From: Eledone cirrhosa
Taxonomy: Eukaryota
DNA: 64,000 nt
NCBI GenBank assembly: GCA_964016885.1
Contig: OZ024741.1
Location: 233,740,001 to 233,804,000 of the forward strand
Direction of reading: 5' to 3'
The notes beneath the pieces were generated by a model. It was not told where the DNA came from. It searched no databases and was given only the letters and a program-made list of their open reading frames with translations. Made by a program: the position numbers and the translations under genes. Positions 10,260-10,714 of the stretch are shown here, piece by piece (positions within the stretch are counted from its first letter, which is position 1; every line of letters begins with the position of its first letter).

Positions 10260-10608
10260 TGTAGAGGTTGTCTCCCTTGTTGTGACTCACAACCCCAATA
10301 GATGAACAACATCTAGACGGGAAGTAGAACCCTTTCTGTAACTTCCGGCAGAGCCCTATAAAACGAATAGCCTTCGGCTCTCTCCCTCTCATTTGCCCTT
10401 CCGGCGCCTGGTCTTAGCCAGGCGTCTTCTGCCAGCCGCGTTTGCCTGGCAATCAAAACGGTAACTACTAACTTTGCTTCATTCTATCATCTATTTCTTT
10501 GACATGACAACTATACTGTTCTATATATATCCATGATTGTTAATTAAATATTATACACACAAACCATGTCTCCTTGTTACATTCATACAACCCAGTATCT
10601 TCGCTATA
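10260..10608 (+). repeat. 5' LTR with Pol II promoter motifs
   Basis: TGACTCA, CCAAT, ACTTCCGG, TATAAAA (10357-10363), Inr-like TCATT ~10389, GC hairpin 10403-10426, ATTAAA 10543-10548. Confidence 0.88.
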
Positions 10609-10609
10609 T

Positions 10610-10714
10610 TGGTAACCCTGACGCGATACGAACACGCAGCCGTTCATCGCTATATTGGTAACCCTGACGTGATACGAACACGCAGCCGTTCATCGCTATA
10701 AGTGGTCACCCCGA
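10610..10714 (+). other. Triplicated primer-binding region complementary to the tRNA-Trp 3' end (32 nt, 32 nt, 12 nt)
   Basis: TGGTAACCCTGACGYGATACGAACACGCAGCC at 10610-10641 and 10656-10687, and TGGTCACCCCGA at 10703-10714, versus reverse complement of metazoan tRNA-Trp+CCA TGGTGACCCCGACGTGATTCGAACACGCAGCC (recalled). Confidence 0.85.

Follow-up and report, generated by a model that had tools for sequence, protein, structure and literature searches.

A tandem tRNA-Trp primer array in Eledone cirrhosa, probably founded in a non-autonomous LTR family by reverse transcription past tRNA base 58

The window analyzed here, a stretch of 64,000 nucleotides of the Eledone cirrhosa genome, contains a tandem array, the primer region in a family of non-autonomous LTR retrotransposons that was probably founded by reverse transcriptase (RT) read-through past base 58 of its tRNA-Trp primer. 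In the founding event, RT would have passed the usual stop at base 58, placed an A opposite a putative m1A58, and copied on to tRNA position 45, after which the copy would have rejoined a U5 end, so that two primer sites came to lie one after the other; two ordinary mismatches, A5 and T10 (numbered along the cDNA), were fixed in the founder as well. The second long unit in the window is likely a later slip duplication. Array length may change in two ways: by template slips between TCGCTATA repeats, leaving the T spacer of the window type, and by priming at the second primer-binding site (PBS2) followed by transfer onto the first (PBS1), leaving an AG spacer. The over-extension of the unit beyond the PBS may act as a landing pad for over-long plus-strand DNA, a role best supported in a related family, family C.

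The array lies in an LTR element of 2011 bp (10260-12270) that has the ends TG...TA and no long ORF. On the forward strand, a left target-site duplication (TSD) GATT (10256..10259) is followed by a 349-bp 5' LTR running from TGTAG to a terminal TCGCTATA (10260..10608, the terminus at 10601-10608), a single T spacer, and long unit 1 (10610..10641), which is antisense to tRNA-Trp positions 76 to 45 and includes the complement of CCA. Positions 1-18 of this unit are the first PBS, the remaining 14 nt are the over-extension, and the A at position 19 (10628) faces tRNA base 58. Next come a 13-nt U5-like tail, GTTCATCGCTATA (10642..10654), a second att end that in other copies with matching TSDs is the integration end (see below), another T spacer, long unit 2, a duplicate of unit 1 (10656..10687, A19 at 10674), a second GTTCATCGCTATA tail and att end (10688..10700), a 2-nt AG spacer, and the short downstream PBS of 12 nt, TGGTCACCCCGA (10703..10714). 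The element is completed by a non-coding internal region (10715..11909; longest stop-free frame 135 codons), a purine-rich tract (11910..11921) taken from its position to be the PPT, a 3' LTR without unit extension (11922..12270), and the right TSD GATT (12271..12274). Two LTRs, a PBS, a purine tract and a TSD, with no coding capacity, make this a non-autonomous LTR retrotransposon. The 46-bp repeat that the initial annotation placed directly after the 5' LTR is confirmed by this layout and by TRF (46-bp period, 2.2 copies, 98% match, 10601-10700), and TCGCTATA is the true LTR end, as had been proposed: it closes the 3' LTR too, with GATT directly after it.

The two LTRs are ~98% identical, and their differences are concentrated near the U5 end. 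Across the family (loci L119-L178), a U5 patch 8-22 nt inside the LTR end (10587-10601 in the window) is hypervariable: the 5' and 3' LTRs of the same element differ at 39/600 sites there, compared with 65/10791 further in, rates that come from 40 of 61 elements, the rest having no 3' LTR in range, no end motif, or more than 3% body divergence. A predicted U5-PBS hairpin spans this patch. Elsewhere in the window, matches to the histone 3' UTR stem-loop occur at 10158-10202 and 12426-12471 on the reverse strand (34 and 28.6 bits; gathering threshold 34), in a high-copy repeat on both sides of the LTR insertion, and there are reverse-strand ORFs with a CARD/Death domain (13491-14216) and C2H2 zinc fingers (48804-49739) and a forward-strand LINE ORF (30493-33378) that has an endonuclease, an RT, and, internally, a match to PHD.

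Compared with host tRNA-Trp gene L061:5538, unit 1 matches at 28/32 positions (mismatches at cDNA positions 5, 10, 15, and 19) and unit 2 at 29/32 (5, 10, and 19), reproducing the counts of the initial annotation, and the short site matches the tRNA-Trp 3' end at 11/12 (mismatch at position 5); the gene comparison starts at cDNA position 4, the leading TGG facing CCA. Positions 20-32 of the unit match the tRNA at 13/13, contiguous with and 3' of the PBS. ARAGORN and Rfam gave no tRNA match within the element; its tRNA-derived piece is antisense to the primer. An ungapped search of 20 fetched stretches, which passes over genes with indels and was led to its clusters by pattern matches, yielded 77 host tRNA-Trp genes. 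CCA follows base 73 in none of them, so the units are reverse copies of mature tRNA-Trp, as the initial annotation had held. The genes lie in two clusters (L061-L064 and L392-L406, at 277.4 and 353.4 Mb of G000:C4); base 57 is A in 53/77 and G in 22/77, and faithful read-through copies are mostly of the G57 type (14/16).

The initial annotation stated that a host gene encoding both T58 and CCA would remove the m1A interpretation of A19. No gene has the CCA and 75/77 have A58, but T58 does occur in 2/77, and these two genes bear on a reading we consider improbable, that read-through was real while A19 is an ordinary mutation or the copy of a genomic T58 variant and records no modification. One of them (L063:2289, G57) would yield the family unit given one other change, at position 28, and the other (L401:9716, A57) differs from the unit at position 20 and could account for some A19/T20 copies elsewhere. 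However, both have further lesions, and neither agrees with the unit at all three of positions 19, 20, and 28 or can give the copies with G or C at position 19. Genome-wide, a non-A58 pattern with long context had four matches, three of them LTR-linked CCA copies and one a cluster gene. Judged on these sequences, a genomic T58 source for A19 appears unlikely. The form of this reading that needs no such gene draws on the family itself: A19 is a single event and the founder carries the A5 and T10 mismatches besides, so a plain founder mutation is possible; against this, A at position 19 is also found in the decayed extension of family C and in family F.

We return to the reading in which base 58 was modified, for which position 19 can be compared across copies. 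Among 24 other CCA-bearing antisense tRNA-Trp copies of at least 33 nt (length 33-49 nt, following several different LTR ends), collected with a pattern that required CCA and a match out to position 33, left positions 16-22 free, and is blind to indels, position 19 is T in 16, A in 4, G in 2, and C in 2. Non-T bases at position 19 (8/24) contrast with a single mismatch in 120 at the invariant neighboring positions 16, 17, 18, 21, and 22 (Fisher p=1.6e-6), and when shared junctions are collapsed the comparison is 6/21 with 1/105 for the neighbors (p=7e-5). Position 20 was excluded as a control because it varies among host genes; non-T19 associates with T20 (6/8 vs 2/16, p=0.005). Outside the window's family there are 316 Trp 18-mers; of the 100 listed, some four fifths (judged by eye) lose the match to the tRNA right after position 18, which marks base 58 as a stop in this host. 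Arrest combined with mixed misincorporation is a described signature of m1A (PMC4787781), and the genomic tRNA-Trp copies display both, arrest one base before the site and mixed misincorporation at it; m1A58 also sets the retroviral plus-strand stop (PMC8599865; PMC13191261). We infer from these patterns that base 58 of tRNA-Trp is m1A in this host, and the A facing it in the family unit likely records the chemical modification of that base. The signature paper describes a low RNA-sense C signal when A follows m1A (PMC4787781); contrary to this, 2/8 of the position-19 mismatches here are of that type, although the enzyme differs.

A quite unlikely alternative to the methyl mark is that RT pauses or switches template at 18 nt, through structure or RNase H spacing, and adds a stray base. 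An inserted base at L236 and L298 and a missing base at L309, all at the same point, would suit such a process, as would the junction-like hypervariability 8-22 nt inside the U5 end, a place in which modification plays no part; on the other hand, the 18-nt stop of HIV-1 and MLV is described as depending on m1A58 in vitro (PMC8599865), and all eight variants of the 24-copy set are in-register substitutions, albeit under a pattern blind to indels. Within the window's family, position 19 is A in 97 and G in 3 of the 100 matches listed of 501, and a genome-wide search for non-A19 units (with C20) returned six, all G, with no T19 among about 500 units. In this family A19 is one fixed founder event. 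The m1A58 misincorporation proposed in the initial annotation gains from the genome-wide mismatch hotspot at position 19, while the two A19 letters of the window count as one event; its suggestion that the two long units stem from one read-through followed by duplication is supported by an A19 fixed in the family. Two further antisense copies deserve mention: L079 (G000:C10:53056915) is a fold-back palindrome that turns at the anticodon stem and has A19/T58 in both arms, and at L304 (G000:C2:139378313) an LTR end is joined to a worn, nearly full-length antisense tRNA-Trp.

Genome-wide, the downstream anchor of the window's family has 661 matches and the unit pattern 501, and a reversed-pattern control has 0, so the unit array is not a chance pattern. 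Thirty copies were chosen by the downstream anchor only and are hence unbiased for units: in 28 a single long unit accompanies the short PBS, one has two long units, and one (L263) has no long unit, AG and a perfect 12-nt PBS standing alone. The standard cassette consists of a single antisense copy of tRNA-Trp, 32 nt long and including CCA, then a 13-nt U5-like end, AG, and the 12-nt second PBS. Exact unit-to-unit junctions occur at 8 loci, or ~14 counting variants, which against the 661 anchors is roughly 2%, and the longest array, at L008, has four long units. What characterizes the family is the double-PBS cassette, of which the two-long-unit array in the window is a rare expansion. The multi-PBS cassette of the initial annotation holds in that the extra PBS appears to prime (see below); two long units are not the family norm, and the one-off accident that it had offered as the alternative does not describe the long unit with its second PBS, a family feature, the two long units being the ~2% variant. 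In 29 copies, extension positions 19-32 have 3 minor alleles where the background median is 24, and 7% of background windows are as low; conservation of the extension in this family is only suggestive. Other rearrangements, at L136, L122, L308, L169, and L171, comprise tandem elements with a shared LTR, a junction of the form LTR-unit-PPT-LTR, a duplication of the whole cassette, and duplications of U5 only.

The window's own two-unit array could be an assembly artefact or a DNA-level tandem duplication that postdates insertion, which we regard as unlikely and which would touch the second long unit only, not the cassette. Its 3' LTR is unextended and both of its units are unreverted, as this would predict, and contigs of four public runs collapse the repeat, none spanning the array. 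Yet the two units differ from each other at position 15, arrays of 2-4 units exist at a dozen other loci on several contigs, and some arrays bear marks specific to RT, namely an AG spacer, a first unit of the tRNA type, or a 3' LTR that has been extended.

How the two primer sites are used can be read in part from the units themselves. At positions 5 and 10, the 100 matches listed of 501 comprise, by eye, 77 A5/T10, 11 G5/C10, 11 G5/T10, and 1 A5/C10 units; G5/C10 is the tRNA-perfect PBS1, and A5/T10, mismatched to the tRNA twice, is the common PBS1. In a tree built from 58 copies, a sample enriched for tRNA-type copies by design and without L137, L157, and L170, the tRNA-type G5 state needs 19 changes (shuffled mean 18.8), 9 of them forced by starred (strong) branches. 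This scatter of G5 implies that PBS1 has been repeatedly re-copied from the primer, and because A19 is retained, the copying normally ends at position 18. G5/T10 units might come from partial repair of heteroduplexes; an A67 isodecoder is an unlikely source for them, as it is found in 1/77 genes whereas such units number 11 among the 100 listed.

The prevalence of mismatched sites also bears on a very unlikely view of the cassette, that it persists chiefly as a decoy or sponge of 3' tRNA fragments (tRFs) or a packaging aid, with arrays favored. Retention of the long unit in 29 of the 30 unbiased copies, and the targeting of PBS sequences by 3' tRFs described for mouse ERVs (PMC7472051), are what this view would lead one to expect. 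Multi-long-unit arrays are, however, as rare as noted above, the common PBS1 has its two mismatches and the short site one, and the array has no special fold, its RNA folding no better than shuffles (z -0.36 and -0.93). The two mismatches of the common PBS1 would fit tRF evasion better than a decoy.

Evidence that PBS2 also primes comes from seven fetched copies in which a 3' or solo LTR contains the whole unit and stops at the second TCGCTATA. Six of these unit-extended LTRs have matching TSDs (L129 TGAG, L161 ATAC, L379 GTTC, L382 GTAC, L385 GACT, and L387 GGTT), and for L386 the left end was not located. Copies L385-L387 have one long unit only at the 5' side, and their unit-extended LTRs seem best explained by priming at the short PBS2. 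By our estimate, PBS1 would prime most insertions and PBS2 ~2%, a figure based on a search for extended-LTR ends that covered ends before C or G (5 real among 7 matches). In 2/8 exact arrays an AG spacer goes with a tRNA-perfect second unit, which is what plus-strand DNA primed at PBS2 and landing on PBS1 would be expected to produce. At L176, an LTR and 10 nt of PBS are followed by a jump back to U5, a new att end, and TSD GTAG, in miniature the proposed founding step. The window array, with its T spacer, unreverted units, and unextended 3' LTR, is without sign of re-priming by itself and would fit a simple slip between TCGCTATA repeats. In four different LTR types (L232, L245, L300, and L301), elements end in LTR, 18-nt PBS, and CTTCTACA, whose reverse complement is an LTR start similar to L232's; these ends are likely mis-transferred plus-strand DNA that acquired a new att end.

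Coding relatives primed by tRNA-Trp have RT, RNase H, and integrase domains, and several have extensions of their own. Family B has a fixed 32-nt extension, with T19 in 28 and C19 in 1 of the 29 copies with PBS (30 fetched), in family D the extension is 33 nt and position 19 is C or A, and family F, which has A19 and a second PBS following the first, shares only the PBS with the window's family. The autonomous family C (90 matches) is the most informative: in 27 of 30 anchored copies the PBS is decayed after 11 nt yet matches the tRNA at positions ~23-40, two copies are rewritten to position 18, and one is rewritten past it. With four added, the through-rewritten copies number five, with T19 in three and A19 in two; a single clade for them is rejected (p-AU 1e-45), and L086 is nested among decayed copies as sister to L324 (95/92*), on a tree with four long branches (L060 and L339 among them) and rough, unsettled bootstraps. 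This pattern indicates repeated read-through past base 58, apparently with successful transfer onto the distal part of the decayed 40-nt extension, and supports a role for that extension as a landing pad for over-long plus-strand DNA, which would be the role of the lentiviral primer over-extension sequence (POS). We rejected such rewriting as a common event in the window's family, where the lack of T19 among ~500 units means that it is rare or absent.

An autonomous partner sharing the LTR was not found by BLAST of the element against ~60 other Trp-PBS loci, which returned only a nested insertion (L184, a window's-family copy within a family C element) and non-coding relatives. At L253 and L305, a window's-family copy carries an inverted LTR and 18-nt PBS of another family, joined via GAT/ATC, which hints at co-packaging and at a family that might act as helper. 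Integrants with one-off read-through probably have precedent: tRNA sequence captured in retroviral DNA was reportedly described by Colicelli and Goff in 1986 and by Pulsinelli and Temin in 1991, and a primer over-extension sequence is said to be the subject of work by Muthuswami in 2002.

Lentiviruses and spumaviruses have a POS, in which bases complementary to the tRNA lie directly 3' of the 18-nt PBS and enable plus-strand DNA that was over-extended to finish second strand transfer (PMC13191261). The window unit is like the POS in having its tRNA complement contiguous with and 3' of the PBS. The POS, however, is described as rescuing products that end at Psi55/U54, a few bases (PMC13191261), while the extensions here run from 14 nt (the window's family and family B) to 22 nt (family C), reaching tRNA 45 or 37, and lie in Gypsy retrotransposons, with a mismatch facing base 58. 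The CsRN1 clade of Ty3/Gypsy (PwRn1, AgCR) has the tRNA-Trp PBS and 4-bp TSD of the window's family, and its CHCC Gag motif (PMC2582038) recurs in the coding relatives of family B (L181) and family F (3/4 copies). Unlike CsRN1, the window's family is without an ORF and ends TG...TA, and the CsRN1 descriptions in that source mention no extended or doubled PBS (PMC2582038). The window's family is likely mobilized by CsRN1-type Gypsy enzymes.

Mouse ETn/MusD elements resemble the window's family in being non-autonomous and in having a common PBS with two mismatches that reverts to a perfect tRNA copy across the tree; neither an extension past 18 nt nor a second att-PBS is described in the account of them in PMC7472051. 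Drosophila Gypsy and yeast Ty3, with a two-part PBS, have more than one tRNA-binding site, as here, but their second sites are at the 3' end and do not prime alone (PMC1635307; PMC5371799), whereas the primer sites of the window's family are adjacent, each after an att end; Ty3 also does not inherit a tRNA copy (PMC5371799) and the window's family does. TRIMs and Helenus share the non-autonomous LTR structure, a TSD of 4 bp in animals, and tRNA-related sequence, but TRIMs are <1 kb and the window element is 2011 bp, and Helenus has in its LTR a tRNA-like sequence that is unrelated to its primer (PMC10886601), while here it is the primer antisense. Searches of CC-licensed full texts, a scope that leaves outside Repbase and most older virology journals, turned up neither long fixed over-extensions nor tandem att-PBS units described for retrotransposons.

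According to reviews, a retrovirus that copies beyond the T-loop stops reaches a dead end (PMC8599865; PMC13191261), and Ty1 and Ty3 are described as not inheriting primer sequence (PMC5371799). The integrated elements here show inherited primer copies; over-extensions of 14-22 nt are fixed in at least four families, with repeated successful read-through in one, and two tandem primer sites both apparently work. These observations draw their value less from the single array than from the family and the pattern across the genome. Assemblies could be mined for the germ-line rate at which retrotransposon RT bypasses m1A58 and for the base that it inserts, and the cassettes suggest a route by which antisense tRNA pieces enter LTRs. 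With something close to an even chance of being right, we propose that Trp-primed CsRN1-type elements in this genome pass m1A58 often enough to evolve long landing pads and doubled att-PBS cassettes, that their copies may form a countable fossil record of a tRNA modification, possibly by isodecoder, and that retrovirus-like primer inheritance may thus exist in a Gypsy clade.
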